Shown piece by piece: positions 1 to 62,372 of a DNA stretch of 64,000 nucleotides. The translations under genes and the position numbers were made by a program. Location of the stretch: the IMG/VR virus record IMGVR_UViG_3300043419_002186, positions 21,792 through 85,791 of that record; one strand, written 5' to 3'. The notes under the pieces were generated by a model. The model was not told the origin of the DNA, did not search any database, and was given only the letters and a program-made list of their open reading frames with translations. Numbering within the stretch: the first letter of the stretch is position 1; every line of letters starts with the position of its first letter. This DNA comes from a virus.

Positions 1-450
1 CAGCAGGGACAGGCGACGTTCGTCATTCCCTCGAACCAGCGTCTGCTGATTCGCCAGTTCCTGCCCATCATCACGCCCGTGGGCGTCGATGGCATCAGCG
101 GCATGAGCAGCTCGCTCGATGCGACGAGCGGCGTGTTCAACGTCGGCGTCCCTGCGGTGGGCGACGTGCTCGCGGGCGGCACCGTGCTCGACCGCGTCCT
201 CGGCAAGGCGCAGAACTGCCGCGTCTCCGTGTCGATGATCTCGTCCACGTTCCAGCTCTTCCCCCAGTACCAGTTCTCGCTGGGTGACCTCATCTCCACG
301 AACTCGCCTGACACGCAGCTCGCGGACATGCCGGGAATCATCCCGCAGGGAACCACCATCGAGATGCTCGCTTCGCTGCAGGACGCGGGCGCTGCTGGCG
401 CGACGACGCAGTACGGCATCGCCATCGTCGGAACCTACATCGCGGTCTAA
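1..450 (+). CDS. Partial (5'-truncated) beta-rich protein, putative single jelly-roll capsid/minor capsid protein; paralog of 475..1098
   Basis: Frame 1 is open from base 1 (QQGQATFVIPSNQRLLIRQF...). C-terminal half aligns with the next ORF (KAQNCR/KAMNAK, FSLGDL/LSLGSL, PGIIP/PLIVP, TQYGIAIVG/TEYGLTCVG). Fold is inferred. Confidence 0.55.
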   Translation, partial: QQGQATFVIPSNQRLLIRQFLPIITPVGVDGISGMSSSLDATSGVFNVGVPAVGDVLAGGTVLDRVLGKAQNCRVSVSMISSTFQLFPQYQFSLGDLISTNSPDTQLADMPGIIPQGTTIEMLASLQDAGAAGATTQYGIAIVGTYIAV

Positions 451-474
451 GCCGCAGCGAACAGGAGCTTCACC

Positions 475-1098
475 GTGGCTATCCTCACTCCCGCACCCCG
501 GAACTTCCAGCAGCGCATCCGCTCGGAGCTGACCGAGGGGCTCGAACTCAGCTACTACGACATCATCCCGTCCATCCTGCACCTGCGCGTGACGCTGGAA
601 GGGACGGGTGCTCGCCCCAACGTCCAAAACCCCGGTAGCGCGAGTGACATCTACCGCGTCGCTGGCGACTACAACTTCCTCATCAGCGAGATTCACGCTC
701 ACGTCGCGATGAACCAGCTCTCGCAGGAGAGCACGGTCGGCGCGACGGGTCTGAACTCGCTCGTTGGCGTGCGCAACCGCACCGCGGTGAAGGCGATGAA
801 CGCGAAGGCGTTCCTCGTCAACCCCGACCGCAACGACCTGCGCTTCGTCGAGACGGACATTCAGAACAGCTCGAACCAGTTCGGTGGCTCGGTGATTTCG
901 CCCCTCTCGCTCGGCTCGCTGATGCCCGAGTGCGGCGGCATGCCGATTCGCATGATCGACAAGGGCTACGTGATGCCCCTCATCGTTCCTGCGAACGAGC
1001 GCATCAAGATGAGCGTCATCCTCCTCGACCCCAACGCGACCCTCGGGCAGACGGAGTATGGTCTGACCTGCGTCGGCGCACTGGTTCGCGCCCGCTAA
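475..1098 (+). CDS. Beta-rich putative jelly-roll virion protein
   Basis: 207 aa, AGGAG RBS upstream, alternating hydrophobic beta pattern, paralogous to the upstream ORF. Confidence 0.55.
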   Translation: MAILTPAPRNFQQRIRSELTEGLELSYYDIIPSILHLRVTLEGTGARPNVQNPGSASDIYRVAGDYNFLISEIHAHVAMNQLSQESTVGATGLNSLVGVRNRTAVKAMNAKAFLVNPDRNDLRFVETDIQNSSNQFGGSVISPLSLGSLMPECGGMPIRMIDKGYVMPLIVPANERIKMSVILLDPNATLGQTEYGLTCVGALVRAR

Positions 1099-1113
1099 AC
1101 AGGGGTCCTCCGC

Positions 1114-2271
1114 ATGTCTTCGTACTCCTTCGGTGACGGAATCCTTCCTCCCATCAAGCGCAAGCCCGCTTCGACGCCTCCTGCGTCGGAGATGGCGCAG
1201 TCGTCCATTGCGCCCGCTCCTCTCGCGGGTCCGATGGATAGCCAGCACGTCGCTGTCCTTGAGGGCGTGGACCATGAGCAGCAGCTCGGGACCGTCATCA
1301 ACCTCGCGCAGAAGCGGGAGCAGAAGACGGCACCGAAGAGCGCCCGAATCGATTCGGCGTTCAAGGAAGTGAAGGCTTCGCTCCCCCGCATGCCCTCCAC
1401 CTTTCAGGTGACCGGCGGCGCGGGAGGAGCCAAGCCGAGCAGCTCGGGAGGAGTGAAACAGCTTTACGCGGAGTCGCAGACGGGAGGAGGCGCTCCTCCC
1501 TGCATGACGGTCTGCGACCTCGTTTACATCATCGAGGCCGCGAAGCGCAGTCGCGCGGTGACGGTGAACTTCCCCTCCACCTCGAAGCTCGGTGTGGCGC
1601 GGGCGCAGACGCAGCTCGCTTGCGTTCCTCGCACGCTGAACGCGGACCAAGCGAAGGCCTTCGCCCCTCGGGCGCAGCAGATGCTCGATGCCATGCGCCC
1701 CTCGGGTCAGGACGTGGCCGAGTGCGTGGCTCGTTACTGCCGCGAGCACGGATGCCCCACGGACGGCGTGAAGGTCGCGACCATCGAGCAGGTCTGCCAG
1801 CTCGTCTTCGCCATCAAGGCGGCGCAGTACGGCCGTTCCTTCAGCATGAGCGTGAACGGCTCGAACGCCACGCTCTCCGCGGAGCAGATGAGGGAGCAGG
1901 GCCCCCGCATCGCCGCCACGCTCAAGGCGATGCTCGACAAGGGGCTCACGACTTCGGACGTGATCGCCGCGTGCGAGAAGAAGTACTGCGAGCAGTACGG
2001 CTGCGCTCCTTCTGCGACGACGACGACGACGGGCGGGGGAACGGGCGCGGGTGCCGGTGCTTCCTGCCCCGAAGGCACGCACTTCGACATGGCGAGCGCC
2101 GAGTGCGTTCCCAACGATGTGCCCGTCGCCAAGGTGGACACGGGGAAGAAGGGGTTCGGCTGGCTCGCGGCTGCTGGTGTCGCCGCGGTCATCGCGAAGA
2201 AGGTTCTGTTCGTGTCCGCGCTCGCTGGAGCGCCCAAGCTGGTCGAACTCGAAGACGAAGACGAGGAGTGA
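1114..2271 (+). CDS. Cys-rich membrane-anchored putative virion protein with two ~90-aa internal repeats
   Basis: Repeats VCDLVYIIEAA...YCREHGCP and VCQLVFAIKAA...YCEQYGCAP; CPEGTHFD...C module; C-terminal hydrophobic segment. Confidence 0.7.
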   Translation: MSSYSFGDGILPPIKRKPASTPPASEMAQSSIAPAPLAGPMDSQHVAVLEGVDHEQQLGTVINLAQKREQKTAPKSARIDSAFKEVKASLPRMPSTFQVTGGAGGAKPSSSGGVKQLYAESQTGGGAPPCMTVCDLVYIIEAAKRSRAVTVNFPSTSKLGVARAQTQLACVPRTLNADQAKAFAPRAQQMLDAMRPSGQDVAECVARYCREHGCPTDGVKVATIEQVCQLVFAIKAAQYGRSFSMSVNGSNATLSAEQMREQGPRIAATLKAMLDKGLTTSDVIAACEKKYCEQYGCAPSATTTTTGGGTGAGAGASCPEGTHFDMASAECVPNDVPVAKVDTGKKGFGWLAAAGVAAVIAKKVLFVSALAGAPKLVELEDEDEE

Positions 2272-2274
2272 AAG

Positions 2275-3255
2275 ATGCGCGCCCCCAAGTACCCGCTCAT
2301 GCCCGCCACGCTGCAGGGCCTCGCTGGACGCCCCATCACGGGAACCACCATCGCTGACGTGGTGCGCGCTCAGAAGGACGCGCTGCTCTACTCGGACAGC
2401 CGCGTGCCTCTGACGGGGCAGTACTACGACAAGTTCCGTGCGACGCAGCAGGTGCGTACCCGCGCTCCCGCGGAGTTCACGAACGCGCAGGTGCGCGGCA
2501 TCAACAACAAGGCGGGTGGCGTGAAGAGCTTCGCCGCCGCGACCTACAGCTACCCGTCGGGGCAGATGGTCATCGGCGCCGCCCTCGCGGGCATGGACGT
2601 GTCCACGCAGACGAGACTTGCGCGCTCGCGTCTCGCGGGCCTCGGTGCTGCCACGTTCGATGATTCCAACATCGACACCTCGCGCATCTCCGCTGGTGTC
2701 CTTGGCTTCGGCGCCGATGAGGAAGATGGCGCCGTCTGTGGCAAGGACTCGGGCAAGGGCGGCTGCGTGCAGGTGAAGGTCAACCGCGTCCGCAAGGCGC
2801 TCGCCGCGGCCGGGAAGGACCCGAACAACGACGCCGCGGTCCTCTACTTCGGCGCGATGCGCTGGGGCACCATCGACTCGCTCACGAAGGCCGTGCAGCA
2901 GTACTGGGACCTCTTCCTCAAGGGAGAGCGGGCCCCGGACAGCAACTACGCAGACCTTCTCGGAGAGGCGAAGAAGATCGCGGAGAAGGCCGACAAGGTC
3001 ATAAGCGACCCGACCGTGCAGAAGGGCATCTCGACCGTCTCTCAGTACACGGGCAGCGGCGTCAGCCCGATGGGCACCTATCGCCCGCTCCCCGGTGCTC
3101 GCTCCATCAGCACCACCGCGGCGCAGGTCTCCGAATCGGTTCGTCGCGCGGCGCTGCCCCCTGAACGAAGCAGTGGCATGGGCATCGGCACCGTCGCCAT
3201 CGGAGCCGCTGTCCTCGTCGGTGGCTTCTTCGCCTACAAGGCCTTCGCGAAGTAG
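2275..3255 (+). CDS. Putative virion protein, C-terminal TM anchor, several LxG motifs
   Basis: LQGLAG, LAGMD, LAGLGA; C-terminus IGTVAIGAAVLVGGFFAYKAFAK. Confidence 0.7.
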   Translation: MRAPKYPLMPATLQGLAGRPITGTTIADVVRAQKDALLYSDSRVPLTGQYYDKFRATQQVRTRAPAEFTNAQVRGINNKAGGVKSFAAATYSYPSGQMVIGAALAGMDVSTQTRLARSRLAGLGAATFDDSNIDTSRISAGVLGFGADEEDGAVCGKDSGKGGCVQVKVNRVRKALAAAGKDPNNDAAVLYFGAMRWGTIDSLTKAVQQYWDLFLKGERAPDSNYADLLGEAKKIAEKADKVISDPTVQKGISTVSQYTGSGVSPMGTYRPLPGARSISTTAAQVSESVRRAALPPERSSGMGIGTVAIGAAVLVGGFFAYKAFAK

Positions 3256-3264
3256 GAGCCCCAA

Positions 3265-4902
3265 GTGCAGATGATGCCGCGACAGCTCGCGGGCCTTGGC
3301 GCAGGTCCCAAGGACGCGCTCAAGCCCGAAGAGCTGCCCAGCGGCATCCTCTTCATCTACCCGCGCTACGTGCTCAAGGTGCTCGGGGACCTCCTCGATG
3401 CACCTGAGTCGCTGGCGCAGATTCAGGCGTGGTCCTACGACCCGCCCGAATGGGTGAAGAAGAAGAACAAGCTCGGTCAGGATTCGTACCGTCTCGCGGC
3501 TTTCCTTCGCACGCGTCTGAACTTCCGAATCCCGAAGAACTGGTTCGACAGTCAAATCGATTCGGACGCTTCGCTCGTCATCGAGGGGAAGCGCAAGTAC
3601 TCGGATGTCTCGACCGAGACGCTGGCCGAGTGGGCGACGAACCCGCCGCCTTGGAGGCCTTGGAACCGCGACAGGGACATCACGGCCGTCGTGATGCCCG
3701 CGATTCTGTGGGCGCAGCGCATCGTCTCCGCTCGCGCTGGCTTCGACATCCCGTTCTTCGTGGACAGCTCCATCGAGGAAATCTCCGACGACTTGGTCCG
3801 TGCAAACGACAAGGACCTTCTCGACTGGGTCGAAGCTCTCTGCAACATGCTCACAAGCTGGGGCATCAGCTCAGCGAATGCAGCGGGCAAAGAGGTTACG
3901 AAGCAGGTCGTCGAGAAGACAGCGACTCAGACGGCGAAAGATGCGGCCCCCGGTCTTTGGGAACAGGCGAAGAAGAAGGCACTTGAAGAGGGGACGAAGG
4001 AAGCCAAGCGCGCCGGAACGGCGCTCATCCGCAAGGGCATCTCCGAGACGGGCGACCTGCTCACGCCCGATGGGGCATCGACCTTCGCGAAGGAGGGTAT
4101 TCAGTCCGCTGAAGCAGGTGTCACTTCTGCAGCGCTCGCCTTTGCCTTCGCCTCGACGCCCATCGGATGGGTCTCTCTCGCTGCCATTGCCGCGGCTCCC
4201 GTCCTCTGCTGGGGAGCGAAGAGCTACGCCCTCAAGCTCATCAAGGACAACCTGCGAGACTGGCATCCCGACTTCGTCCCCACGTTCATCGGCAGCGTGT
4301 ACCAGAAGCGCTTCGGCATCGTCCCCGGCGCGGATGTCATCTCGAACCTCGACCAGCGCTACTCGGCTCTCATCAGCGCGAACAGCATCGCGAAGGCCGT
4401 CGCCTCTCCCGAGAACGACCCCGCGGTCCTCGCCGCGGTGACGAAGCGGCAGAACGAGATTCAGGCCACCATCACGAAGTCGCTCGACTACTTCGGATGC
4501 AAGACGCCGAACCCTGACCGGGTGGCCGCGTTCGCAGACCGCGCCTTCAACAACTTTTGGTCTCCCGAAGAAATCAACCGGCGCGTCTACAACGAGAAGG
4601 CGTGGCTCTGCAGCGCCAGCTCCATCAAGGAGCTGCGCACCATCGTCATGCGGCCTGCCATCTCCTCTGCCGCTGCCCGCATCACGAAGGCCGTTGCGGC
4701 GATGCGCAACAGCATCAAGCCCCCCATCGCTCCCGTGACCCCCTCGGGCAAGCCCCCCGTAGGCCCTGTGCCTCCCGCAGGGCCCGCGAAGGGCGGCATC
4801 GGGCCCGCGCTCGCTCTCGCCACTGGCGGCTTCTTCGTCGGCGGCCCTCCCGGTGCTGGCATCGGATTCGTGCTCGGCCTCATGGCCGGAAAGAAGAAGT
4901 GA
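3265..4902 (+). CDS. Large membrane-associated putative virion protein
   Basis: 545 aa; N-terminal LAGLGA; internal and C-terminal Gly/Ala-rich hydrophobic segments; RBS AGGAG. Confidence 0.7.
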   Translation: MQMMPRQLAGLGAGPKDALKPEELPSGILFIYPRYVLKVLGDLLDAPESLAQIQAWSYDPPEWVKKKNKLGQDSYRLAAFLRTRLNFRIPKNWFDSQIDSDASLVIEGKRKYSDVSTETLAEWATNPPPWRPWNRDRDITAVVMPAILWAQRIVSARAGFDIPFFVDSSIEEISDDLVRANDKDLLDWVEALCNMLTSWGISSANAAGKEVTKQVVEKTATQTAKDAAPGLWEQAKKKALEEGTKEAKRAGTALIRKGISETGDLLTPDGASTFAKEGIQSAEAGVTSAALAFAFASTPIGWVSLAAIAAAPVLCWGAKSYALKLIKDNLRDWHPDFVPTFIGSVYQKRFGIVPGADVISNLDQRYSALISANSIAKAVASPENDPAVLAAVTKRQNEIQATITKSLDYFGCKTPNPDRVAAFADRAFNNFWSPEEINRRVYNEKAWLCSASSIKELRTIVMRPAISSAAARITKAVAAMRNSIKPPIAPVTPSGKPPVGPVPPAGPAKGGIGPALALATGGFFVGGPPGAGIGFVLGLMAGKKK

Positions 4903-5702
4903 TGGGACCGAATCGATTCGCACTTGGATGCTGGGACAAGGACGACGCGCTCGGCTGCACTCCCGAGATGCCGCCACCCGTGCTCGGCAACGCGTTCACC
5001 GACAAGCTCAAGTCCATTCCTCCGAAGGGCTGGCTCGCCATCGGCGGCGCGGCGCTGCTCATCCTGCTCATCGCGAAGCGCAGGACCGTGGCCACTGCCG
5101 CTCAGAGCGTCGCTGAGCGTGCCAAGGAAGCTGCGCAGAGCCTCGTCGGTGCGTTCCTCACCCTCAACGCCATCCGCAAGGCGATGCCGAACGTGAGCCT
5201 CGCCAAGGCGACTTCGCTGCTGCCCGACCTGACGCTCGCGCTGGACGAGGCGAACATCAACACCCCGAAGCGCGTCGCCGCGTTCCTCGCGCAGGTGGGA
5301 CACGAATCAGGCGACTTCCGATACATGGAGGAGCTGGCGAGCGGCGCTGCCTACGAGGGACGCAAGGACCTCGGGAACACGCAGCCCGGGGACGGCAAGC
5401 GTTTCAAGGGCCGTGGTCCCATCCAGCTCACGGGGCGCTCGAACTATCGCGCCTTCACGAACGCCATCGGCAAGAAGTACGGCGTGGACTTCGAGAAGAA
5501 CCCGGAGCTGGTCGCGGACCCCCGCTGGGGCTTCAAGGCGGCGTCGTGGTTCTGGAACTCGAAGAACCTCAACAGCTACGCGGACAGGGGTGACTTCAAC
5601 TCCATCACCTACCGCATCAACGGCGGCTACAACGGGAAGGCCGACCGAGACAAGCGTTATGCTATCGCCTCCGCGGCACTGATGCCGGTGGGCAACGCGT
5701 AA
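4902..5702 (+). CDS. Glycoside hydrolase family 19 (chitinase/lysozyme-like) lytic enzyme with N-terminal TM segment
   Basis: AAFLAQVGHES, FKGRGPIQLTGRSNY, ASWFW, ITYRINGGYNG motifs; start overlaps the upstream stop (TGATG). Confidence 0.9.
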   Translation: MGPNRFALGCWDKDDALGCTPEMPPPVLGNAFTDKLKSIPPKGWLAIGGAALLILLIAKRRTVATAAQSVAERAKEAAQSLVGAFLTLNAIRKAMPNVSLAKATSLLPDLTLALDEANINTPKRVAAFLAQVGHESGDFRYMEELASGAAYEGRKDLGNTQPGDGKRFKGRGPIQLTGRSNYRAFTNAIGKKYGVDFEKNPELVADPRWGFKAASWFWNSKNLNSYADRGDFNSITYRINGGYNGKADRDKRYAIASAALMPVGNA

Positions 5703-5714
5703 CAGGGGAAGAGC

Positions 5715-5921
5715 ATGGCAGCACAGGGGCAACCGAAGGTCCTCCAGACGATGAAGTTCAAGACGTCGCAGGAGGCGCAACAGAAGCTGATGCAGCTCGG
5801 CGCACGGTTCCGCATGAGGGACACCGCCACGGGGGGGCTGCTCTACAAGACACCTGCAGGAGTGGTCCTGCGAGTTCGCCAACCTGACGCAGTCGAGGTA
5901 CTATCGAACTGCGTCTGCTGA
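5715..5921 (+). CDS. Small hypothetical protein
   Basis: 68-aa ORF in operon context with purine-rich RBS. Confidence 0.6.
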   Translation: MAAQGQPKVLQTMKFKTSQEAQQKLMQLGARFRMRDTATGGLLYKTPAGVVLRVRQPDAVEVLSNCVC

Positions 5922-5935
5922 AACAGGAGTGAGTC

Positions 5936-6520
5936 ATGGCCGAAATGATTGCGATGCTGGGTGGTCTCGGAAGCTCGGGGTGCGTGGGCTGCTCGTCGGG
6001 CCGTGCGCTCTCCATCAACGGGGCCCCGATGACCCCTGAGCAGGAGATGCTGGCCGCTCGCGCGGGCACCATCAGCTCCAGCCAGTACAGCCCCCGCCTC
6101 GCGGGCGCGCCCATGACTCCCTCCATCGCCGCCTACATGGCGCGTCGTGGCGAGATGGCTTCCGCGCAGTACAACCCCAACCTCGCTGGTGCCCCCATGA
6201 GCGTCGCAGAAGAGGCCCGCGCTGCGCGGGCGAACGTCATCGTCTCACAGCAGTACAACCCGAACCTCGCGGGCGTGCCGACCACGGCGCTCTCCGTCGC
6301 GGATCAGGTGCGTGCGAAGGCCATCACCAGCGCTCCGTACTACATGAAGCGCAGCGTCAACCCGTACTCGATGCTGACGAAGGGTCAGGCCGGGACGCTG
6401 CAGGGCATGGGCGACTGGTGGTCCTCGCAGTCCACGACCATGAAGGCCGTCTACGCCACCGCGGGCATCGTTGCCGCTTGGTGGGGCGTCCCGAAGCTCG
6501 TTCGCGCGGTGCGAGGCTAG
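5936..6520 (+). CDS. Putative virion protein with 28-aa tandem repeats and C-terminal TM
   Basis: Repeats of (I/L)xG(A/V)P...SxQY(S/N)Px; MLGGLG and LQGMG motifs. Confidence 0.75.
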   Translation: MAEMIAMLGGLGSSGCVGCSSGRALSINGAPMTPEQEMLAARAGTISSSQYSPRLAGAPMTPSIAAYMARRGEMASAQYNPNLAGAPMSVAEEARAARANVIVSQQYNPNLAGVPTTALSVADQVRAKAITSAPYYMKRSVNPYSMLTKGQAGTLQGMGDWWSSQSTTMKAVYATAGIVAAWWGVPKLVRAVRG

Positions 6521-6522
6521 TC

Positions 6523-6768
6523 ATGTACCGACCCCACGACATCATCGCGAGCGGCTCGCACCGCAAGCCGATGGCCATCGAGGTCATGAGCCTCAACGGC
6601 ATGCAGCCGGGGCTCTCGCGTGCTCAGGCCGCGAGCCTCACCGCTGTCACCGTCAACGGCCTCATGGGCCTTGGCGCTGAGCCCGACGAGACGAAGCAGC
6701 CTCTGTGGCCCATCCTCGCTTTCGCCGCTGTCCTCGGCGTCGTCCTTTGGAAGAAGAACCTCTACTGA
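6523..6768 (+). CDS. Small TM protein
   Basis: LNGMQ and VNGLMGLGA motifs; C-terminus LWPILAFAAVLGVVLWKK. Confidence 0.7.
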   Translation: MYRPHDIIASGSHRKPMAIEVMSLNGMQPGLSRAQAASLTAVTVNGLMGLGAEPDETKQPLWPILAFAAVLGVVLWKKNLY

Positions 6769-6778
6769 GGCTGCTGTC

Positions 6779-7039
6779 ATGCCGACCGCGAAGCTGATGG
6801 AGCTGCTGTCTCACCCCATCGCTCTCGACGCCTTCGACTCCCTCTCCAAGGGCTCACACCCTCAGAGCGTTCTCGCGGGCATCGCGTCGGACATGGCAGC
6901 ACTGAAGATTCGTCAGCTCCTCGGCGGCGTCGAGAAGGACGAATCGATTCGCTCGAAGAAGGATGACATCGTGGACGCGGAGTACACCGTCATCGACGTG
7001 ACCCCCGGCGTGAAGCGGCGCACCACGAAGGAGAAGTGA
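6779..7039 (+). CDS. Small hypothetical protein
   Basis: MPTAKLMELL... 86 aa, GAGG RBS, host-like codon usage. Confidence 0.65.
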   Translation: MPTAKLMELLSHPIALDAFDSLSKGSHPQSVLAGIASDMAALKIRQLLGGVEKDESIRSKKDDIVDAEYTVIDVTPGVKRRTTKEK

Positions 7040-7040
7040 C

Positions 7041-7286
7041 ATGCCCTCGAAGAAGAAGTGCAAGTTCGGCCTGAACAAGCGCACGAAGAAGTGCCTCAAG
7101 CACCCGCGCAAGAAGGCCGCTGGCACTCGCAAGAAGGCTGCTGCTCCGAAGAAGCGCCGAAGCGCGGGCACGATGGACTGGCTCACGAAGGGGCGAAAGC
7201 CCGCGCGCGTCACCCGCAGGGGTGGCATGACGATTCGGGAGTACTCTCCCGAGGACTCGATGAAGGCCATCTACGGCGAGTGGTGA
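7041..7286 (+). CDS. Lys/Arg-rich basic (histone-like) protein
   Basis: MPSKKKCKFGLNKRTKKCLKHPRKKAAGTRKKAAAPKKRR. Confidence 0.7.
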   Translation: MPSKKKCKFGLNKRTKKCLKHPRKKAAGTRKKAAAPKKRRSAGTMDWLTKGRKPARVTRRGGMTIREYSPEDSMKAIYGEW

Positions 7287-7299
7287 GAAGGGGACTCTG

Positions 7300-7584
7300 A
7301 TGACTGCGCGGCTCTACTACATCTTCATGGACGGATGCGGTGCCTGTCAGATGGCGAAGCCCGAGCTGAAGAAGTTCGAGCGCGCTCACCCCGAGGTTCA
7401 GGTCGTTCCCGTGAACCTGCTCACGGTCGGGGACAAGTGGAAGCACGACTGGAAGCCGGAAGCGACTCCCACCTACGTGCTCGAAATCCCGGGGCATGAG
7501 CGCACGCGCTACGAGGGCGCGCTCATGGCGAAGCACATCGAGCAGTTCATCCGAAAGTCGAAGCAGATGATCGGAGCCCAGTGA
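7300..7584 (+). CDS. Thioredoxin-fold protein
   Basis: CGAC active-site motif after an N-terminal beta strand; ATPT cis-Pro region. Confidence 0.85.
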   Translation: MTARLYYIFMDGCGACQMAKPELKKFERAHPEVQVVPVNLLTVGDKWKHDWKPEATPTYVLEIPGHERTRYEGALMAKHIEQFIRKSKQMIGAQ

Positions 7585-8927
7585 TGTTCAAGAAGAAGAA
7601 GAGCGCGGGCCTCGCGGGCGTCGAATCGATTGGCGACGACAAGTACTGCGTGGGCGCCAACCCCGACGCCAAGGTCAACATCTCCGCGGCTCGTTGGGCT
7701 CTCGACTTCCTCGAACGTCGCGCGGAAGAGGACCCGTGGTTCAACGGGACGACGCTCATCTTCCACTCGGGGCAGGTGAACTACACGAAGCATCAGCTCG
7801 TCGCTGAGAAGTTCAACACCTTCGGTCCCCGCGTCTCTCTCAACGAGGACGTCGCTCGCGGCATCGCGTGCACGCCCGCGCTGAACCCTGTCGCTGCTTC
7901 GGGCAAGAAGGGCGTCGCACTCACGCAGACGACCCCGTTCATCTACAAGACGCCGCTGCTCGCGGCGAAGTTCATCGAGGTCTGCGGCGAGAACGGCGAG
8001 AAGTGCCGAGGGCACAAGGACCTTGAGAAGCTCCTGCTGCAGCTTCGCTCGAAGGGAGCGCTTCGACCTGAGCACAAGCGCGCTGGCATGAAGGGCTTCT
8101 CCGCTTCCGTCCCCGCGGGCTTCGTCGGCTGCGACCCGAAGAAGCCGGTCAAGAAGCCCTACGCCGTCGGCTTCGGCACGAAGATTCGCGAGCTGGTGCG
8201 TGAGTACGCGGGAGACCCCAACGCGGTTGCCGTGGACCGTCACATCGCCGCTTGGGTCTGCAAGCACTACGGAACGTCGAGCCCCGAAATCAAGCAAGCG
8301 TGCCATGGCGCGTTCGCTGCGATGAGGCTCGAAGACGAGCAGAAGAAGTACGCGGTGGACTCCAAGAAGTGGAAGTCGCTGCAGAGGAAAATCGACAAAA
8401 TCGAGGACAAGACCAGTGCTTCGGTCGGTGCCTACGAGGAGTCGAAGAAGTACTCCATGCTCAAGAGCGTCGTCGCGGACGAGGCCAAGAAGTGCGGCGT
8501 CTCTCCCGCGCTGCTGCAGGTGGGCGCGTGGTTCAAGCAGACCTGCCGCGTCGGCGGGAAGAACGAGATGGTGTGGCTCGGCGCGAAGCGCAAGCTGCGC
8601 GAGGACGAAGACCCCGCGTGCGAGCTGGAGAAGGAAATCGTCGATGCCTGTGCCTCGGACTCGATGATTCACGGCTCCATCGGCTTCTGCGACGCGGACA
8701 GGAAGAAGAAGTTCTGCAACGCGTTCGCCATCCGCAAGGCCAAGATTGCGAAGGGGGAGATTGACCCCGACGCCGTCGGCAAGAAGAAGAGCAGGAGCAG
8801 GAAGGGAGCCAAGAAGGGCTCGAAGAAGGGGAAGGCGCTCAGCGGTCTCTCCTCCTCGGACATGGGCAAGGGCTGCTCCGTCGCCGGTCGCAAGGCTGTC
8901 CTCTCGCTCCTCGACAGGGCCATCTGA
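7581..8927 (+). CDS. Cys/Lys-rich protein with HhH-GPD/DNA-glycosylase-like region
   Basis: AVAVDRHIAAW and GVSPALLQVGAW resemble the VDxH and C-terminal QxxxW motifs of HhH-superfamily phage proteins; GLAGV and LSGLS at the ends. Confidence 0.5.
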   Translation: MMFKKKKSAGLAGVESIGDDKYCVGANPDAKVNISAARWALDFLERRAEEDPWFNGTTLIFHSGQVNYTKHQLVAEKFNTFGPRVSLNEDVARGIACTPALNPVAASGKKGVALTQTTPFIYKTPLLAAKFIEVCGENGEKCRGHKDLEKLLLQLRSKGALRPEHKRAGMKGFSASVPAGFVGCDPKKPVKKPYAVGFGTKIRELVREYAGDPNAVAVDRHIAAWVCKHYGTSSPEIKQACHGAFAAMRLEDEQKKYAVDSKKWKSLQRKIDKIEDKTSASVGAYEESKKYSMLKSVVADEAKKCGVSPALLQVGAWFKQTCRVGGKNEMVWLGAKRKLREDEDPACELEKEIVDACASDSMIHGSIGFCDADRKKKFCNAFAIRKAKIAKGEIDPDAVGKKKSRSRKGAKKGSKKGKALSGLSSSDMGKGCSVAGRKAVLSLLDRAI

Positions 8928-9271
8928 TGAACCTGCTCCAGCTCATCGTCATTGCCGGAATCGCTGCCGCTGGCGCCGTCAACGTCGTCCGCGCCGTCGT
9001 CCCGACGCTGTGGCTGCTGGTCAAGCCGTTCTCCTGCGACCTCTGCATGTCGTGGTGGTCGTCTCTCGCCGTCACCATCGCTTACGCGACGGTGAGCCCC
9101 GTGACAGTGCTGGAAGCCGCCATCGCAGTCCTCGGCGGGACCGCCCTCTCGCTCATTCTCGTCAAGCTCGTTGGAGTTCTGTCCGAGTCCCGAATCGATT
9201 CGCAGGTTGCCGACTTGGCCGTCTCGGCTGATACTGGCACTGCAGAAGAGGAGTCCTCCCATGTTCGGTAA
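8927..9271 (+). CDS. Multi-TM membrane protein with CxxC (DUF1360-like)
   Basis: KPFSCDLCMSWW between hydrophobic helices. Confidence 0.6.
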   Translation: MNLLQLIVIAGIAAAGAVNVVRAVVPTLWLLVKPFSCDLCMSWWSSLAVTIAYATVSPVTVLEAAIAVLGGTALSLILVKLVGVLSESRIDSQVADLAVSADTGTAEEESSHVR

Positions 9272-10163
9272 CGTAGACCTCATGCACTCTCTCGCGGGCA
9301 TCGCGAATCTCAGCGCTGCCCCAGCGTCCGACAAGGGCTTCGCGTCCGCGGCGAAGCGCCTTCCGAAGGAAGCGAAGGCCGAGTACAAGGCCATCGAGGA
9401 CCGCCTCAAGTCCGAGATCGACGCCTTCGAGGAGCGACAGAAGGAAGCGCTGGAAAAGCTCAAGGAGAAGCAGCGCGCCGCGCGCAAGGACTTCTTCCGC
9501 GCGTTCCCGCAAGCCCGCTATCTCTCCCCCGCGGAGCTGAAGAAGGCTCGCGAGGTCGTCAGCGCGTTCCTCCTCGGGAAGGAAGCTGGCAGCGAGGACA
9601 TGAAGACGGACGGTCTCTCGCTCGTCGTGGACGGTGCCGAAGTCGCCCGCCGCAACAGCATCAGCGACCGCTTCATCACCGTGTGCCCCGGAGAGTTCGG
9701 TGGCAAGGGCCGCGCCGAGCGTCGCGCCGCGAACGCCATCCTTGAGATGGTCGGCGCTGGCGTGCAGGTCTACGACCGTGACGGCGCCTCGTTCTTCGGC
9801 CCCCACGGCTCGAAGTCGGGCCGCGTGGTGTCGAGCGCGTGCCATCAGGTCGAGGTCGGCAAGAAGCTGCGCGACAGGGCGATGCAGGAAATCTACGGAC
9901 CCGCCATCGGCCCCGTGCGGCAGGAGTCGCGTGCTTCGCTCGACACGGGCGAGGGCATTCAGCTCAACCCGCTCGAAGCCCGCGCCATTGACCTTGAGGC
10001 CGAGGGCGTCGCGATGCGCGAGGGCAACCTCAAGCGTTATGGTCGCAAGCTCCGTGGCCGCAAGGCGTATCGTGCGAAGAAGGCCGCTGCCGCTGCCGAA
10101 GCTCGCAAGGCGGCGAAGAAGCCCGCGAAGAAGAAGGCCTCGAAGAAGAAGGCCAAGAAGTAA
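9261..10163 (+). CDS. Protein with histone-H1-like Lys/Ala-rich C-terminal tail
   Basis: GAGGAG RBS; LAGIA near N-terminus; ends KAAKKPAKKKASKKKAKK. Confidence 0.75.
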   Translation: MFGNVDLMHSLAGIANLSAAPASDKGFASAAKRLPKEAKAEYKAIEDRLKSEIDAFEERQKEALEKLKEKQRAARKDFFRAFPQARYLSPAELKKAREVVSAFLLGKEAGSEDMKTDGLSLVVDGAEVARRNSISDRFITVCPGEFGGKGRAERRAANAILEMVGAGVQVYDRDGASFFGPHGSKSGRVVSSACHQVEVGKKLRDRAMQEIYGPAIGPVRQESRASLDTGEGIQLNPLEARAIDLEAEGVAMREGNLKRYGRKLRGRKAYRAKKAAAAAEARKAAKKPAKKKASKKKAKK

Positions 10164-10240
10164 GCTGAATCGATTCGGGCGTTTGCGCCCATAACCGCGC
10201 CCCGTCGGGCGCAAGTACCCGAAAGGGAAGGAGCACGAAC

Positions 10241-10351
10241 ATGGCGATGAAGATGTGTCAGGTCAAGAAGGGCAAGAAGACGGTCACCAAGAAGGGCTGG
10301 CGTATCGCCAAGGGTGGCCGCTGCGTCAAGGCCAAGAAGCACAAGAAGTAA
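10241..10351 (+). CDS. 36-aa Lys-rich microprotein (absent from ORF track)
   Basis: AAGGAG RBS then MAMKMCQVKKGKKTVTKKGWRIAKGGRCVKAKKHKK*. Confidence 0.7.
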   Translation: MAMKMCQVKKGKKTVTKKGWRIAKGGRCVKAKKHKK

Positions 10352-10402
10352 GAACTCCGCGCCGACCCCCCGGCGCACGTCCCGCCACCCCTCGGGACAT
10401 TC

Positions 10403-10443
10403 GAAGGCCCGCTCTCCTCACGGAGGCGGGCCTTCGTCTTTTC
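10403..10443 (+). terminator. Intrinsic terminator between convergent genes
   Basis: GAAGGCCCGC...GCGGGCCTTC stem followed by GTCTTTT. Confidence 0.6.
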
Positions 10444-10775: not shown

Positions 10776-11756
10776 CTACTTCTCCCGCGGCGTCAGCACC
10801 GCGCCCGCGCTCGTCTTGTCGAAGGCGTTCTCACGCTTGTCGTACCTGTTCAACGTCTCGACCCGTTTGTGGCCCGTGACCGACATCGTGTCCGCGTCGG
10901 AGACCTTGCGGGCCCTCGCCTCCGTCACGTGGCCGCTGCGAAGCGAGTGGCCCGCGAACTCGCGAGGGTCGAAGCCCGCGCGCCTTGCGGCAATCTTCAC
11001 GATGACCGCGATGGCATCCGGCGTCATGCAGCAGTCCTTCGGCTGACTGCTCCTGTTGAAGGGGCGGAAGACGGCTCCCGAATCGATTCGTGCCGCGATG
11101 AGCCATGCACGAAGCGCCGTCGCCGCACACAGCCCGCCCCCCTCGGTGACGAAGGGAATCGCCTTGAGCATGCCCTCGCCCCGCTGGTCCGTCTTTGAGC
11201 GACGCACCGTGACGAGGACGCCCTGCTCGGACCACTTGAGGTCCTGCATGTCGAGCCCCGCCAGCTCGGACCTGCGGAACGCGCCCGCGTAACCCATGAG
11301 GATGATGGCGCGGGCCCGAAGGCCATCGAGCGTGTTCGGGTTGCAGGTCGAGACCATCTTCTCGACCTTCGCCAGCGTGGCGGGCGCCTTCGCCTGTGTC
11401 GCGATGCCGAAGGTGCGCTCGATGCCCTTCATCACGGCCTTGACCGACTCCGTGGAGCACGGGTTCGGGTGGTTCGCGATGGCGTGCATCTTCGCGATGG
11501 CCGCGAGGCGACGGCGCAGGGTCGCTGGCTTCACCCTCTTCGCGTCGTCCGCGAGGAAGGCGGCGATGGTGACCGGGTTCGCGGGCATCGGCACTGCCTT
11601 GTGGGCACGGCACCAGTCATTGAACTCGGCCCAGTCGGAGGCGTAGGCGCGCCGCGTGTTCTCGGGGATGCTGTCGCGGATGAAGTCGCGAGCCTCCTCG
11701 ATGGGCTTCGCAAGTGCCGCGGGGACGGACGAATCGATTCGGATGAGGTCGCTCAT
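10776..11756 (-). CDS. Tyrosine recombinase/integrase
   Basis: N-terminal SAM-like domain (NTRRAYASDW); catalytic R (FRRSEL), K (RRSKTDQ), HxxR (HSLRSG), H (TGH), Y (LNRY). Confidence 0.95.
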   Translation of the reverse strand: MSDLIRIDSSVPAALAKPIEEARDFIRDSIPENTRRAYASDWAEFNDWCRAHKAVPMPANPVTIAAFLADDAKRVKPATLRRRLAAIAKMHAIANHPNPCSTESVKAVMKGIERTFGIATQAKAPATLAKVEKMVSTCNPNTLDGLRARAIILMGYAGAFRRSELAGLDMQDLKWSEQGVLVTVRRSKTDQRGEGMLKAIPFVTEGGGLCAATALRAWLIAARIDSGAVFRPFNRSSQPKDCCMTPDAIAVIVKIAARRAGFDPREFAGHSLRSGHVTEARARKVSDADTMSVTGHKRVETLNRYDKRENAFDKTSAGAVLTPREK

Positions 11757-56587: not shown

Positions 56588-57067
56588 ATGCCCATCATCC
56601 GAAACCCCTTCCACGTTATCAAGGACTACGCCTACCGGCGTCGGCTCAAGAAAGAGCTGGTCCACCTCATCAAGAACAAGCATCCCGCGCTCGACCGCGG
56701 CCTGCAGTTCGAGGGCGTGACGCACACGAACCCCGACTCGCGAAGCATGACCATCATGCTTGTTCTGCAGGACATTCTGCGCGAGCACCGCGAGTTCTCC
56801 GTCACCAACTGGCCCGGTGGCATCGCCCTCGTTCGCACAGCTCAGGTCGCTGAGCTTCCCGATGACATCCGGGGTGTGAATGAGGAGACGAACTTCATCG
56901 TGCGCGGTGGCACGGATAAGGGCGCGCACCTCGTCGATAACGCGCCCACGCCCAAGGGTGCTGAGTACCGCGAGGACGACCAGCTCACCGACGCCTCGCG
57001 AGAGAAGCTCGAAGAGAACCGCAAGCGGCTCGAAGCCGAGCAGAGGAGCCTTGATGCAGCCCGTTGA
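56588..57067 (+). CDS. Hypothetical protein
   Basis: 159 aa; TTGACT promoter-like element upstream. Confidence 0.65.
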   Translation: MPIIRNPFHVIKDYAYRRRLKKELVHLIKNKHPALDRGLQFEGVTHTNPDSRSMTIMLVLQDILREHREFSVTNWPGGIALVRTAQVAELPDDIRGVNEETNFIVRGGTDKGAHLVDNAPTPKGAEYREDDQLTDASREKLEENRKRLEAEQRSLDAAR

Positions 57068-59507
57068 GATTCCGATTGATGTGACCCCCGGCATGCTCAT
57101 CGGTGCCGTGGGTTCGGACGGCACGAAGCACGTGTCCCCCGAAGCACAGGACATTCTCGAACGTCTCAAGTCGCACTACCAAGGCCTCGGGAAGCCCTCT
57201 GCCGCTCACAACTACCATCGGCACCTGAAGAGCTTCTTCTCTTGGGCCGAGGCGCAGGGCTACACCATCAAGACGCTGCCCGTGAGCGCTGTCGAGGACT
57301 TCCTCTCCGCTCTCGCTGCCGCGGGACAGAAGGAATCTACCCTCTACGTGATGCGGACCCAGCTCCGTAGCGCGCTGCGCGAGTGCAACAACACGCTGGG
57401 CGTGGACTTCGCACACCTCGAAGCACAGTCCGGGGCGAAGCCCAAGCATCTCAAGAAGGCGGACAAGGAGCGCGAGAAGGCCAAGAGGGCCGAGGTCCGC
57501 GCCGAGAAGGCCATCGCCACTGCCGCCGCCATCCGCGCTGCCCATCAGGTCGGCGGTTACTCGGTTCCCCAGCCGCGGGACTATGCCGCTGCCGTCTCCG
57601 AGGCCGCTGCCATCGCCGCTGCCGAATCGATTCAGTCCACCATGACACCCCCCGAGGAGTCCCCCGTGAGTACAGAGAGCGTCCCCACTTCCGCGGGTGC
57701 AGCGTCCGCGGGGGGGCAGTCCCAACAGCCCATCCATGTCCACGTAAACGCGCCCACGCCCAATGGTCGTCCCACGCCGACCATCGGCGCTCCCGCTCGT
57801 CCCGTGGCTCCCGTGGTCCCGAAGATGTCGGTGACCATCAACCAGTTCGCGTTCACGGGGCCCCACATCCGCATCACGCGGCTCGCGGACGGCACGGACC
57901 CGCTGACGCCCCCGGGGTCCGAGGTCGCCGTCACGACCATCCCGCTGACGCAGATTGCGCCCCATGGCGACGTGTCGGGGTTCATGCAGCAGTTCATCAT
58001 CCCCAACATCCGTGGGCTCTCGCCTCTGGCCTCGCAGGTCCACTTCGTCTTCCATGAGCTGAACGACCGTCGTCAGCCCACGGGCCGTCGGGACGAACTC
58101 ATCGTCGGGCTCCCCATGACGTTCTCTCAACAGGGGCCCATGCCCCAGCCGCAGTCCCCTTCCTTCGGCGCACTGCCCGCTGGCTACGGGGCCCCTGCCG
58201 CTGCCCCCGCCAACGACGCGACCAGCTTCCTTCTGAAGAAGCTCGACGAGGAAGCCGCGGACGCGAAGGCCAAGGCCGATGCTCTTCAGCAGGAGCTGCG
58301 CAAGGCCTCTGACGCACAGACCGTGTTCATGCTCAACCAGCAGTTCCAGCAGATGCAGGACCTCAAGCGAGAGCTGGAGGAGCGAAAGGCCATCGAGATG
58401 CAGCGCATGATGACGCCTCCCCCGATGCCCATGACGATGCCCACTCCCGTGACCATCGAACCGATTCGCCCCGACACCTCGCTTGCCGACGCCATGCGCG
58501 CGATGGCCGAGCAACAGGCGAAGACCCTCGAAGTGCTCGCCACCGTCATGCGCCCCGCGCCCGCTGCCCCTGTCAAGGACACGGCCGAGTGGCTCGTCCC
58601 CTTCATGGGCCAGATGCAGCAGCAGGCTCAGGCACAGGCCGCGGCTCAGCAGCAGATGATGCTGACCATCATGCAGGGTCAGGCGGTGCAGCAACAGGCC
58701 GCGGCAGAGGCGCAGCGTCAGGCCTCGCAGCAGATGATGCAGCTCATGATGGGCAAGGAGTCCACCGTCGAGAAGATTCTCATCGCGCAACTGCAGGAGG
58801 CAAAGGCTGCTGCCAGCGCCCCAAAAGGGGACGACGTCGAGGACTTCGCGGAAAAACTTCAGAAGATGAAGATGGTCGCGGAGATGATGGGCGGTAACGG
58901 TGGTGGTGGCGGCGGTGGCGGTCTCATCAGCGAGCTGCTGGCCAATGCCGAGCAGATTGGCGCTGGAGCCGCGCAGATTATCTCCGCTGCCAAGGACCGC
59001 GCCGCTGGCAACGCCGTGAAGGCCCCGGACGTCAACGTCGGCGGCAACGTGACCGCTCCCGCGGGCGAGCTGCCCCCTGCCTCTGCGCCGCAGGAGGCCC
59101 CGAAGATGCCCGAGATGCCACGTGAGGTCTCACAGAACCTCGACGCCATCATCGACGCCGCGACCGCTGAGAACGCCGAGGGCATCATCAACGGCGTGCT
59201 GGGCTACATCAAGTCGATGACCGAGGCACCCGAGCCTTGGCCGAAACTCGCGCAGCGGATGCTGAACGGCTTCGCGGACGCTGATGACGAGGGCGAGCTT
59301 TACACGTTCGCCAAGAGCATGTGGATGCTCGCAAGCCGCACCCACAACCGCGCCCTCTCGAAGCTGGTCGCTGCCGTCATCGCGGAGAACTACTCGCAGA
59401 TGCACGAAGCCATGTTCGGGACCCCGAGGGCACTGCCGGGGGCACAGGACGAGGTCGAAGAAACCGTCGAAGTCGAAGAGACGCAGCAGCAGGAGGCGCA
59501 GTCGTGA
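57054..59507 (+). CDS. Large protein: N-terminal integrase SAM-like domain plus Pro-rich and Gln/Met-rich coiled-coil regions
   Basis: AAHNYHRHLKSFFSWAE...VEDFLSAL; poly-Q/M segments; GAGGAG RBS. Confidence 0.75.
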   Translation: MQPVEIPIDVTPGMLIGAVGSDGTKHVSPEAQDILERLKSHYQGLGKPSAAHNYHRHLKSFFSWAEAQGYTIKTLPVSAVEDFLSALAAAGQKESTLYVMRTQLRSALRECNNTLGVDFAHLEAQSGAKPKHLKKADKEREKAKRAEVRAEKAIATAAAIRAAHQVGGYSVPQPRDYAAAVSEAAAIAAAESIQSTMTPPEESPVSTESVPTSAGAASAGGQSQQPIHVHVNAPTPNGRPTPTIGAPARPVAPVVPKMSVTINQFAFTGPHIRITRLADGTDPLTPPGSEVAVTTIPLTQIAPHGDVSGFMQQFIIPNIRGLSPLASQVHFVFHELNDRRQPTGRRDELIVGLPMTFSQQGPMPQPQSPSFGALPAGYGAPAAAPANDATSFLLKKLDEEAADAKAKADALQQELRKASDAQTVFMLNQQFQQMQDLKRELEERKAIEMQRMMTPPPMPMTMPTPVTIEPIRPDTSLADAMRAMAEQQAKTLEVLATVMRPAPAAPVKDTAEWLVPFMGQMQQQAQAQAAAQQQMMLTIMQGQAVQQQAAAEAQRQASQQMMQLMMGKESTVEKILIAQLQEAKAAASAPKGDDVEDFAEKLQKMKMVAEMMGGNGGGGGGGGLISELLANAEQIGAGAAQIISAAKDRAAGNAVKAPDVNVGGNVTAPAGELPPASAPQEAPKMPEMPREVSQNLDAIIDAATAENAEGIINGVLGYIKSMTEAPEPWPKLAQRMLNGFADADDEGELYTFAKSMWMLASRTHNRALSKLVAAVIAENYSQMHEAMFGTPRALPGAQDEVEETVEVEETQQQEAQS

Positions 59508-60624: not shown

Positions 60625-61377
60625 ATGGCAGCGAAGAAGAAAAAGGTGGACGGACGCACGAAGGAGGGCAAGTCCCTCAAGAAGAAGGCCACGGCGCGTG
60701 AGTCCAAGAAGGACGTGAAGAAGCCGAAGCTCAAGCCCGTCCGCGGGACCACGAAGAAGACCGTGGATAAGGCCAAGCTGCACAAGGTGTCGAAGAAGGA
60801 CCCGCGCCCCCGCGTCGGTAGCGTCGTCCTCTTCACACAGGGCGAGGGTCGTCGCATGACCTTTGGCCTCGGCATCTATGACTCGCGCGTCGGGGACATC
60901 GCCAACGTCATCGTGGGAGAGAAGCCCGCTCAGCGCACCGTGTTCGCTGGCGTGCACGAACTCTACAAGCCGCTGCCCACGGAGAAGGCTCTGCACGCCT
61001 TCGTGGTCGAATCGATTCGCGAGGCCTACGAGCGCGGGTTCAGGGCTGGTGAGCACAGCGCGCTGGGACAGACGCACTCCGTTGTTGCTCCGATTGTGGG
61101 CGGCATCCTTGACATCCCCGTCGAGACTGTTGCGCTGAAGACGGCAGAGGAAGAAGCCCCGAAGTCCGACGACATGTCTCTCATGTACGCTGCCTTTGCC
61201 AAGCGGCCCGAGGCCCAGCAGGTCGTGGAGCGTGCCGAGGAGCTGCTGGACTCGGACGTTCGCGTGTCCCCTGACCCCGAGGCCGTTCGCGAGGCCATTG
61301 AGGCTGTCCACGAAGAGCAGACGGAGGCCGAGAAGCTCGCCATCATCTCAGAGGTGCAGAAGGCTCCCCTGCTCTGA
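60625..61377 (+). CDS. Protein with Lys-rich N-terminus and acidic C-terminus
   Basis: MAAKKKKVDGRTKEGK... Confidence 0.7.
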   Translation: MAAKKKKVDGRTKEGKSLKKKATARESKKDVKKPKLKPVRGTTKKTVDKAKLHKVSKKDPRPRVGSVVLFTQGEGRRMTFGLGIYDSRVGDIANVIVGEKPAQRTVFAGVHELYKPLPTEKALHAFVVESIREAYERGFRAGEHSALGQTHSVVAPIVGGILDIPVETVALKTAEEEAPKSDDMSLMYAAFAKRPEAQQVVERAEELLDSDVRVSPDPEAVREAIEAVHEEQTEAEKLAIISEVQKAPLL

Positions 61378-61598
61378 TGTGAAAAAGACTGTTGCGCTTA
61401 TCGGAGGTCTCGCTGTACTGTTCACCTGCTGCGGAACGCGCGGGCAAGGCGCGGAACCGGCGGTGGGCAGGTAAGACCCCGAGAGGCGACTGGTCATCGG
61501 CTCTCACGGCCTCCGAGGAGAAATCCTCGGGGGCCGTTCCTTTTCGCGGGTGGCGGGGTCCGTGGCCTCGGGGTACAGTCGCTGCCATTGGAGGCTTC

Positions 61599-62372
61599 AT
61601 GGCAGACGGCAATCGGCCCATCGGATGGAACCCGCTTATCGGATTCGGGTTCACTGCGCTCGGCGTAGGCTACCTGTACGAGGTGTGGAAGCACCGTCAG
61701 CCCGCTCTCCTTCCCGCTCCCGAAGGACTGAACGGTCTCGGCTACGCGAGGAGCGCCCCTCCCCCAAAAGGCGAACCCCTCGTCGTTCGCGACGGGGTCC
61801 GAAAAATCAAGTTCTACCCCGCAGGTGACATCGACCAGCGCGTCGGCTACATCATGCGGCAGATTCAGATGGATTCGCTTGACCCCCGCGTCATCAGCGA
61901 GGCCAGCGCCATCATCGGCGGCAAGTGCCCCGTGGAGCGCGGCGGTCTTGACTGGTGCGTTCCCCCCAAGAACTGGCGCGCTGAAATCTCCAATCTCTTC
62001 GGGGCTGTGCACAGCGCGAACAGCCGCATCGGCATGCGCTACACCCGCGACCACGATGGTGTGGACATGTTCCGCTCCTCCGCGCTCATGCGCCGCATGC
62101 CCGTGGGCGACTGCGACGACATGGTCATCCGCCTCGGCGCGATGCTCAAGGCCATCGGCTACAGCGTGAAGTGCCGCGTCGTTGCCCCGAAGGGCGCTCC
62201 CGGCCAGTGGGCCCACATCTACCTGATGTGCGGCTCTGAGGCGGGCAACCAGCAGCCTCCCAAGTGGCTCCCGCTGGACCCCACGGAGCCTGAGAACGGT
62301 GTCTTCTGGGAGGTGCCCGACAGGCTCATCTCCACGAAGAAGGACTTCCTCGTCCCCGCTGGCGTGCCGTAG
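61599..62372 (+). CDS. Transglutaminase-like (papain-fold) Cys protease with N-terminal TM
   Basis: Triad GDCDD / WAHIY / PLDPT; RYTRD; LNGLG after the TM; GGAGG RBS. Confidence 0.85.
   Translation: MADGNRPIGWNPLIGFGFTALGVGYLYEVWKHRQPALLPAPEGLNGLGYARSAPPPKGEPLVVRDGVRKIKFYPAGDIDQRVGYIMRQIQMDSLDPRVISEASAIIGGKCPVERGGLDWCVPPKNWRAEISNLFGAVHSANSRIGMRYTRDHDGVDMFRSSALMRRMPVGDCDDMVIRLGAMLKAIGYSVKCRVVAPKGAPGQWAHIYLMCGSEAGNQQPPKWLPLDPTEPENGVFWEVPDRLISTKKDFLVPAGVP

Follow-up and report, generated by a model that had tools for sequence, protein, structure and literature searches.

Predicted single-jelly-roll proteins encoded by a complete 85.7-kb virus genome suggest a clade of large, possibly tailless viruses of bacteria

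The 64,000 nucleotides analyzed here (the window, to which positions refer unless the contig is named) are bases 21792–85791 of the 85,791-bp IMG/VR contig IMGVR_UViG_3300043419_002186 (G000), that is, its last 64 kb and about three quarters of the genome. Positions 1–10351, for which a preliminary description made from the window had listed structural genes, raise the question of what kind of virus particle they encode. The best explanation is that this region is part of the virion and lysis late block of a complete double-stranded DNA virus of a bacterium with a genome of approximately 85.7 kb. With moderate confidence, the virus is assigned to an undescribed clade of large viruses that lack a tail and a recognizable packaging motor, have single-jelly-roll capsids, and probably contain a membrane.

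The genome is complete. The first 127 bases of the contig are repeated at its end (contig 1–127 corresponds to 85665–85791, window 63874–64000), and IMG/VR lists G000 with direct terminal repeats and a CheckV completeness of 100%. The relatives considered here are G001, G002, and G003 from IMG/VR as well as further related loci (L-series); five relatives were used in the comparison of late proteins. G001 is a second complete genome (75,406 bp). Because its closure overlap likewise comprises exactly 127 bp, the overlap probably stems from assembler k-mers and need not be a physical terminal repeat; what it demonstrates is the circularity of the assembly and, with it, the completeness of the genome. 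The G+C content of G000 is about 65%. Neither the window nor contig 1–20000 yielded a tRNA gene, and ARAGORN matches in relatives were uninformative.

Gene calling was GC3-based. Since the contig ends overlap, both window ends are part of one late block, a single plus-strand block of about 39 kb that runs from approximately position 56570 through the window end, the junction, and contig 1–21791 to position 10163. Positions 1–10351 cover its downstream end. The preliminary description had correctly noted that structural genes run off both window ends, but the structural block of 10 kb described there is only a section of the actual late block, and the best-conserved capsid candidate is located just outside the window.

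Three adjacent jelly-roll genes

The best-conserved part of the late block consists of three adjacent genes encoding proteins of about 200 amino acids (aa):

Contig 20887–21537, plus strand: 216-aa capsid candidate, 255–905 nucleotides upstream of the window, with a good Shine-Dalgarno site and directly preceding the paralogs
1..450, plus strand: jelly-roll paralog A, C-terminal 149 codons (full length 199 aa, contig 21642–22241, start 150 nucleotides before the window)
475..1098, plus strand: jelly-roll paralog B, 207 aa, candidate capsid protein with a predicted jelly-roll fold

Their identity to the relatives is, in gene order, 62–74% (five relatives), 39–57%, and 48–65%, and the synteny is kept in all relatives. 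The gene of the 216-aa protein, which encodes the best-conserved late protein, had not been called before and was exposed by the comparison with the relatives. At 90% identity its family falls into 116 clusters, and at 50% it has 239 representatives; none is annotated, and the family is found on contigs of up to 110 kb. Among the best 150 of the 239 representatives there are no fused forms: each is a separate protein that does not exceed about 250 aa, and most measure 200–250 aa. The beta-rich proteins encoded at 1..450 and 475..1098 are indeed paralogous, as had been proposed from the window: paralog A aligns end to end with paralog B (25% identity, E 3e-7) and is located directly upstream of it in 15 of 15 related loci (32–59% identity). 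A relation between the 216-aa family and the paralog family was not detected using hhalign.

Structure prediction with AlphaFold2 and family alignments covered two late proteins, paralog B (predicted local distance difference test, pLDDT, 81.4; predicted template modeling score, pTM, 0.74) and the 216-aa protein (pLDDT 80.8, pTM 0.77). Each model shows one jelly roll of about 200 aa in the form of a beta-sandwich, and capsid proteins from viruses with an internal membrane are over-represented among the structural neighbors. Closest are capsid proteins of the single-jelly-roll type, with SPV1 (Portogloboviridae) in first place, followed by Helvetiavirae. The model of the 216-aa protein reached structure-comparison scores of 5.9 with SH1, HCIV-1, and HHIV-2, 6.0 with VP17 of P23-77, and 6.2 with the turret protein of STIV. 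For paralog B, the scores of SPV1 (7.6–7.8) were tied with those of cellular PHM jelly rolls (7.4–8.5); HHIV-2 (6.6), HCIV-1 and SH1 (6.2), VP17 and VP16 of P23-77 (5.8 and 5.7), and then PBCV-1 and PRD1 P3 followed. Foldseek returned sphaerolipovirus and SPV1 proteins with probabilities of 0.91–0.96, but with E-values of only about 1e-2. The named clusters nearest to a homologue of the 216-aa protein in the ESM Atlas were the PRD1 P3 and P2 families (0.77–0.78), which is a weak lead only. Profile searches of PDB sequences with the family alignments A1, A2, and A4 gave nothing significant, and the three single Pfam matches obtained with 80 family members are at chance level. By codon bias, the jelly-roll genes rank 10th, 12th, and 27th among 86 genes, which would fit high expression without settling the matter. 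We infer that the three genes encode the shell (capsid) proteins.

Hallmark genes and relatives

The hallmark genes were searched for with sequence profiles. PHROG and Pfam profiles, applied to essentially all open reading frames (ORFs) of at least about 160 aa in the whole genome, detected no family of terminases, portals, capsids, tail tubes, sheaths, tape measures, or baseplates. The absence of terminase, portal, HK97 capsid, and tail genes noted earlier for the window thus extends to its flanks and to the entire 85.7 kb. Six-frame searches of the genome with PF03237 (Terminase_6N), PF03354 (TerL_ATPase), PF04860 (Phage_portal), PF05065 (Phage_capsid), and PF01935 (DUF87/HerA) gave no match; PF01580 (FtsK_SpoIIIE) aligned with nothing except the P-loop of an SMC-like protein and, at 18 bits, stayed under the cut-off. 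In G001, G002, and G003, the same profile searches likewise revealed no terminase, portal, capsid, tail, or FtsK/HerA family; the large late ORFs of G001 displayed only peptidoglycan-hydrolase domains. The two late proteins that were folded are jelly rolls and not HK97, and a double jelly roll was found neither in these two models nor among the best 150 of the 239 representatives of the 216-aa family. Of the two outcomes named in the preliminary description as refuting it, tailed-phage hallmark genes in the flanks and folds other than jelly rolls, neither was observed.

In a Walker-A scan, the late blocks of G000 and G001 contained no ORF that combined a P-loop with a coding signature. Every P-loop ORF was assigned to a non-terminase family, and no small one is located near the capsid-like genes. 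Four ORFs considered as packaging ATPase candidates were rejected: 13332–13898 (AAA_33 kinase-like), 22557–23699 (MoxR-type AAA_5 adjoining a VWA protein), 37981–38895 (Sak4), and 28476–30134 (SMC/Rad50-like).

The clade is metagenomic, unannotated, and widespread, with contigs of 65–110 kb. The late proteins common to G000 and G001 are mostly small, and the large late ORFs are lineage-specific. Besides the jelly-roll trio, the shared set comprises a basic protein of 50 aa, a membrane protein of 204 aa that is rich in Gly, several proteins with transmembrane (TM) helices, the 159-aa and 68-aa proteins, a thioredoxin, a multi-TM protein with a CxxC motif, a basic 300-aa protein, and a TM protein with a Cys/His/Asp domain (listed below). 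The exception to the small size is a low-complexity protein of about 800 aa with a SAM-like DNA-binding N-terminus; all other clade-conserved late proteins are smaller than about 330 aa, and none combines the size and character of TerL, portal, or HK97 capsid proteins.

Positions 1–10351 were compared by DNA megablast, and the 216-aa and 207-aa proteins by tblastn, with 50,697 phage records; neither search gave a match. No copy of the two capsid-like families (alignments A1 and A2) was present in 185,579 GTDB species genomes. A locus scan with sub-alignment A5 yielded nothing beyond the same three IMG/VR records, and no published description of such a clade was found in literature searches. 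G002 is classed as a provirus by IMG/VR; together with the conserved tyrosine integrase (56–66% identity) and a ParB-like protein, this makes a temperate lifestyle plausible, although the GTDB genomes contain no copy.

Further genes of the late block and the early region

TM helices were counted with a strict Kyte-Doolittle cut-off, and several further late proteins lie just below it. At least 10 of the 45 late-block proteins contain a TM helix, compared with 6 of 59 in the minus-strand block. Many of the late helices are C-terminal and followed by Lys or Arg residues, and several of the late TM proteins are conserved across the clade. The single-TM proteins with basic tails, the TM-anchored lysin, and the basic core-like proteins reported in the preliminary description were all recovered. 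The start of the endolysin gene at 4902 was deduced from the sequence, and the TM helix is N-terminal in this likely product. Net charges are +15 for the 50-aa protein (contig 20011), +22 (7041–7286), +31 (7581–8927), +23 (9261–10163), and +23 (contig 667–1083). The late genes in the window are, in the order of the block:

56880..59507, plus strand: first large late gene, 817–875 aa, Ala/Gln/Pro-rich, N-terminal integrase-SAM-like DNA-binding domain (PF02899, 1.2e-5)
60625..61377, plus strand: 250-aa protein, N-terminal 60 aa extremely Lys-rich; no family match
61392..62372, plus strand: 326-aa TM protein with a Cys/His/Asp-containing C-terminal domain; 48% identity in G001; no Pfam, PHROG, or PDB match
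62423..62902, plus strand: 159-aa beta-rich protein, candidate vertex or minor capsid protein; 37–38% in G001; only 8 homolog clusters
62926..64000, plus strand: 421-aa Ala/Gly-rich fiber-like protein, continuing over the genome junction into contig 128–318
1114..2271, plus strand: 385-aa Cys-rich protein with a C-terminal TM anchor (residues 351–369); no family match; not conserved in relatives
2275..3255, plus strand: 326-aa protein with a C-terminal TM anchor (residues 302–320); no family match
3265..4902, plus strand: 545-aa membrane protein (TM residues 300–318), Gly-rich hydrophobic C-terminus; no family match
4902..5702, plus strand: glycoside hydrolase family 19 (GH19) endolysin with an N-terminal TM or signal-anchor helix (PHROG 181, 5.8e-61; PF00182 Glyco_hydro_19, 8e-12)
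5715..5921, plus strand: 68-aa conserved late protein; 50–56% identity in all five relatives
5936..6520, plus strand: 194-aa repeat protein with a hydrophobic C-terminus; N-terminus conserved in G002
7041..7286, plus strand: 81-aa very basic protein
7300..7584, plus strand: thioredoxin with a CGAC motif (PF00085, 1e-6); 39–56% in all relatives
7581..8927, plus strand: 448-aa Lys/Cys-rich basic protein; no family match
8927..9271, plus strand: 114-aa multi-TM protein with a CxxC motif and three TM segments; 31–48% in relatives
9261..10163, plus strand: 300-aa protein with a histone-H1-like Lys/Ala-rich tail (12 Lys or Arg in the last 25 residues), last late gene

Over 740 aa, the 817–875-aa protein shares 43% identity with the product of G001's first late gene; it has no PDB or PHROG relative. 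The 300-aa basic protein is 34–42% identical in G001, G003, and L013 and, judged by its composition, is a candidate DNA-condensing core protein. Searches of the conserved 817-aa, 326-aa, and 300-aa late proteins against PDB using phmmer yielded nothing, and the 159-aa protein showed no similarity to paralog B. For a 214-aa protein (contig 17875–18519), matches to lytic transglycosylases and g-type lysozymes were non-significant (E approximately 0.5). The clade-conserved thioredoxin and the multi-TM CxxC protein, located in one block with Cys-rich proteins, are compatible with a putative viral disulfide relay. Two genes for HNH/AP2-type homing endonucleases are present in the late block (contig 1031–1726 and 18836–19429; 37% identical to each other), and a homing-endonuclease homologue was found near the capsid-like genes in all relatives.

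The large lineage-specific late proteins include Gly/Ser/Thr/Ala-rich fiber or beta-helix proteins (421, 256, 210, 628, 920, 702, and 1163 aa). A fiber/beta-helix cassette of 13 kb (contig 4091–17282) is missing at that position in G001. Two of the fiber/beta-helix proteins share their N-terminal 150 aa approximately (E 5e-16).

The remaining genome (10258–55189) is mostly located on the minus strand. Its products are an integrase, a kinase-like protein of the AAA_33 family, a MoxR/VWA pair, a ParB-like protein, an ATPase resembling SMC/Rad50, PolA (no more than 26% identity to any phage PolA), Sak4, an exonuclease, and an SNF2 helicase carrying an HNH insert; the DUF3987 primase is one plus-strand gene inside this region. 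The integrase borders the late block:

10776..11756, minus strand: tyrosine integrase (Pfam Phage_integrase, 9.7e-13; PHROG 1, 5.3e-18)

The MoxR-type AAA_5 ATPase adjoins a 532-aa VWA-like (DUF2201) protein (20894–23699, minus strand), a pair that only G003 shares. The SMC/Rad50-like ATPase (28476–30134, minus strand) is kept in G000 to G003 with 45–53% identity, and the ParB-like protein is encoded at 24948–26153 on the minus strand. Neither a ParA partner of the latter nor an Mre11/SbcD partner of the former was identified. Four twister-P5-like ribozyme matches are located between early genes, all on the minus strand (24878–24940, 22477–22549, 23725–23791, and 24336–24403). One exceeds the Rfam gathering score (38.9 bits); the others reach 36.2, 28.7, and 27.7 bits.

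The 10-bp palindrome GAATCGATTC, often extended to CGAATCGATTCG, occurs 47 times in the window, where 0.1 copies are expected; the whole genome holds 59 copies, or 0.69 per kb. Examples are the sites at 1346, 4910, 10167, 13936, 22516, and 26086, as well as contig 20804 upstream of the gene of the 216-aa protein. Of the 59 copies, 25 are intergenic, whereas only about 10% of the genome is. G003 contains 38 copies and L011 three; the palindrome is absent from G001, G002, and L013 and is therefore a feature of a sub-lineage rather than of the whole clade.

Particle model and alternative explanations

In the proposed particle, the shell would be built from the small single-jelly-roll proteins of the three adjacent conserved genes. 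The number of TM proteins suggests a membrane in the virion, in which the conserved TM-anchored late proteins would be seated. The extremely basic proteins would condense the DNA. Because no packaging NTPase of any known type was found, we infer that the particle assembles around the condensed DNA, as in SPV1, instead of being filled by a motor. The variable fiber/beta-helix cassette with its shared N-terminal anchors may provide vertex fibers for adsorption and host recognition, and the membrane-tethered GH19 endolysin would free the progeny. More tentatively, the clade might be a new lineage, at the family to realm level, of 65–110-kb bacterial double-stranded DNA viruses with an icosahedral, membrane-lined shell of three single-jelly-roll proteins, protamine- or histone-like condensed DNA, and no motor, that is, a four- to five-fold larger counterpart of the portogloboviruses.

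Several points weigh against a tailless jelly-roll virus. We know of no precedent for the encapsidation of 85 kb of DNA without a motor. Jelly rolls also occur as decoration, cement, and fiber-tip proteins of tailed phages, and such accessory proteins were among the fold matches (KHP40 cement, Pam1, and the phage 7-7-1 fiber). The 702-aa fiber protein (contig 11348–13456) contains a domain common to myovirus tail fibers (E 3e-13). Finally, a very divergent HK97, portal, or TerL fold could, formally, still be present among the late proteins outside the two that were folded.

The last three of these points lead to the main alternative, a tailed phage (Caudoviricetes) with hallmark genes diverged beyond detection by profile hidden Markov models, in which the trio would be decoration, cement, or tail-accessory proteins. 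G000 resembles Caudoviricetes in its genome size, its integrase, GH19 endolysin, and homing HNH genes, and its phage-like replication and recombination module (PolA, Sak4, SNF2, and primase). Small ORFs after the fiber genes are placed like fiber chaperones, the automatic taxonomy of the Atlas clusters is Uroviricota, and structure prediction covered two late proteins only. Nevertheless, we regard a tailed phage as unlikely. TerL is the most conserved caudoviral gene, but no Pfam or PHROG terminase model scores in the six frames of two complete genomes, in which the portal, HK97 capsid, tail tube, sheath, tape-measure, and baseplate families were undetected as well. In addition, no late ORF has a P-loop, no clade-conserved protein is a candidate of TerL, portal, or capsid size, and the 10 to 14 late TM proteins go far beyond the needs of a lysis cassette.

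Somewhat less probable still is another, non-icosahedral or enveloped architecture (pleomorphic, spindle-like, or new), in which the jelly rolls would be spikes, nucleoplasmin-like DNA chaperones, or TasA/Ena-like fiber subunits. The many membrane and basic proteins and the lack of a packaging motor would fit such a particle, but the structural match lists are dominated by viral capsid jelly rolls, and three adjacent conserved jelly-roll genes fit the gene pattern of single-jelly-roll capsid viruses (PMC8812541). A non-viral plasmid-like or integrative element with surface adhesins and membrane proteins in the plus-strand block is very improbable, since the ParB-like and SMC-like proteins, the integrase, the missing capsid hallmark, and the PATR repeats of autotransporter type in two of the large proteins (920 and 1163 aa) are opposed by the endolysin, the divergent early/late layout, phage-type replication and recombination genes, a Walker-A scan without conjugation or secretion ATPases, the classification of G000 to G003 as viral by IMG/VR, and the lack of copies in the GTDB genomes.

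A large tailless jelly-roll virus thus remains the preferred reading, and among known systems SPV1 comes closest in fold. SPV1 has a genome of about 20 kb and infects a hyperthermophilic archaeon, whereas G000 comprises 85.7 kb and displays bacterial features (Shine-Dalgarno sites and a GH19 endolysin). G000 also differs in its three different jelly-roll genes (two of them paralogs), its large fiber cassette, and the PolA/SNF2/Sak4 replication module. SPV1 (capsid PDB 6OJ0) likewise has no packaging ATPase (PMC8812541), and both have many membrane proteins and basic proteins that might condense the DNA. For SPV1, co-assembly around condensed DNA has been described (PMC8812541). The two share no sequence similarity, and homology is unproven.

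Helvetiavirae (Sphaerolipoviridae, Simuloviridae, and Matsushitaviridae, with SH1, HHIV-2, HCIV-1, and P23-77) may resemble G000 in the adjacent genes for single-jelly-roll proteins, which in G000 are capsid candidates. In Helvetiavirae, two neighboring genes encode capsid proteins of the vertical single-jelly-roll type; the particles have an internal membrane and spikes at the vertices, and the P23-77-like viruses infect bacteria. In contrast to G000, where none was found, they encode an FtsK/HerA packaging ATPase beside the capsid genes; their genomes comprise 16–31 kb (PMC12642351, PMC12643093) compared with 85.7 kb, and there is no sequence similarity. In 2025, Helvetiavirae were moved by the international committee responsible for virus taxonomy (ICTV) from Varidnaviria to the realm Singelaviria (PMC12714852).

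Viruses of the Tectiviridae/Corticoviridae type (PRD1 and PM2; Varidnaviria, Bamfordvirae) are tailless, with an internal membrane, many small TM virion proteins, virion lytic enzymes, and vertex spikes, and PRD1 P3 is weakly represented among the fold and Atlas neighbors. Their genomes are 10–15 kb in size. They combine a double jelly roll of about 270–400 aa with a P9/A32-type ATPase, whereas the best 150 representatives of the 216-aa family are single-domain proteins (mostly 200–250 aa) and no such ATPase was found. The preliminary description had proposed a temperate Varidnaviria-like lineage with caudovirus-like replication genes and Myxococcota as possible hosts. A large tailless jelly-roll virus with phage-like replication is the best-supported part of this proposal; the label Varidnaviria-like is imprecise, because neither a double jelly roll nor an A32/P9-type FtsK/HerA ATPase was found.

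To our knowledge, all cultured bacterial viruses with genomes this large are tailed, and among viruses of prokaryotes, those known to be tailless and to contain a membrane have about 10–31 kb of DNA. All earlier descriptions of the design suggested for G000 concern viruses several times smaller. By default, genomes of this kind are labeled Caudoviricetes or Uroviricota in current pipelines. If the proposed reading is correct, a clade common in environmental metagenomes would be missing from all phage collections. SPV1 has been proposed to represent the ancestral state of single-jelly-roll viruses (PMC8812541), and the clade would constitute its bacterial counterpart. How 85 kb of DNA could be selected and enclosed without a motor would then call for an explanation, and the assumed tie of large prokaryotic virus genomes to the HK97/terminase machinery would be broken.

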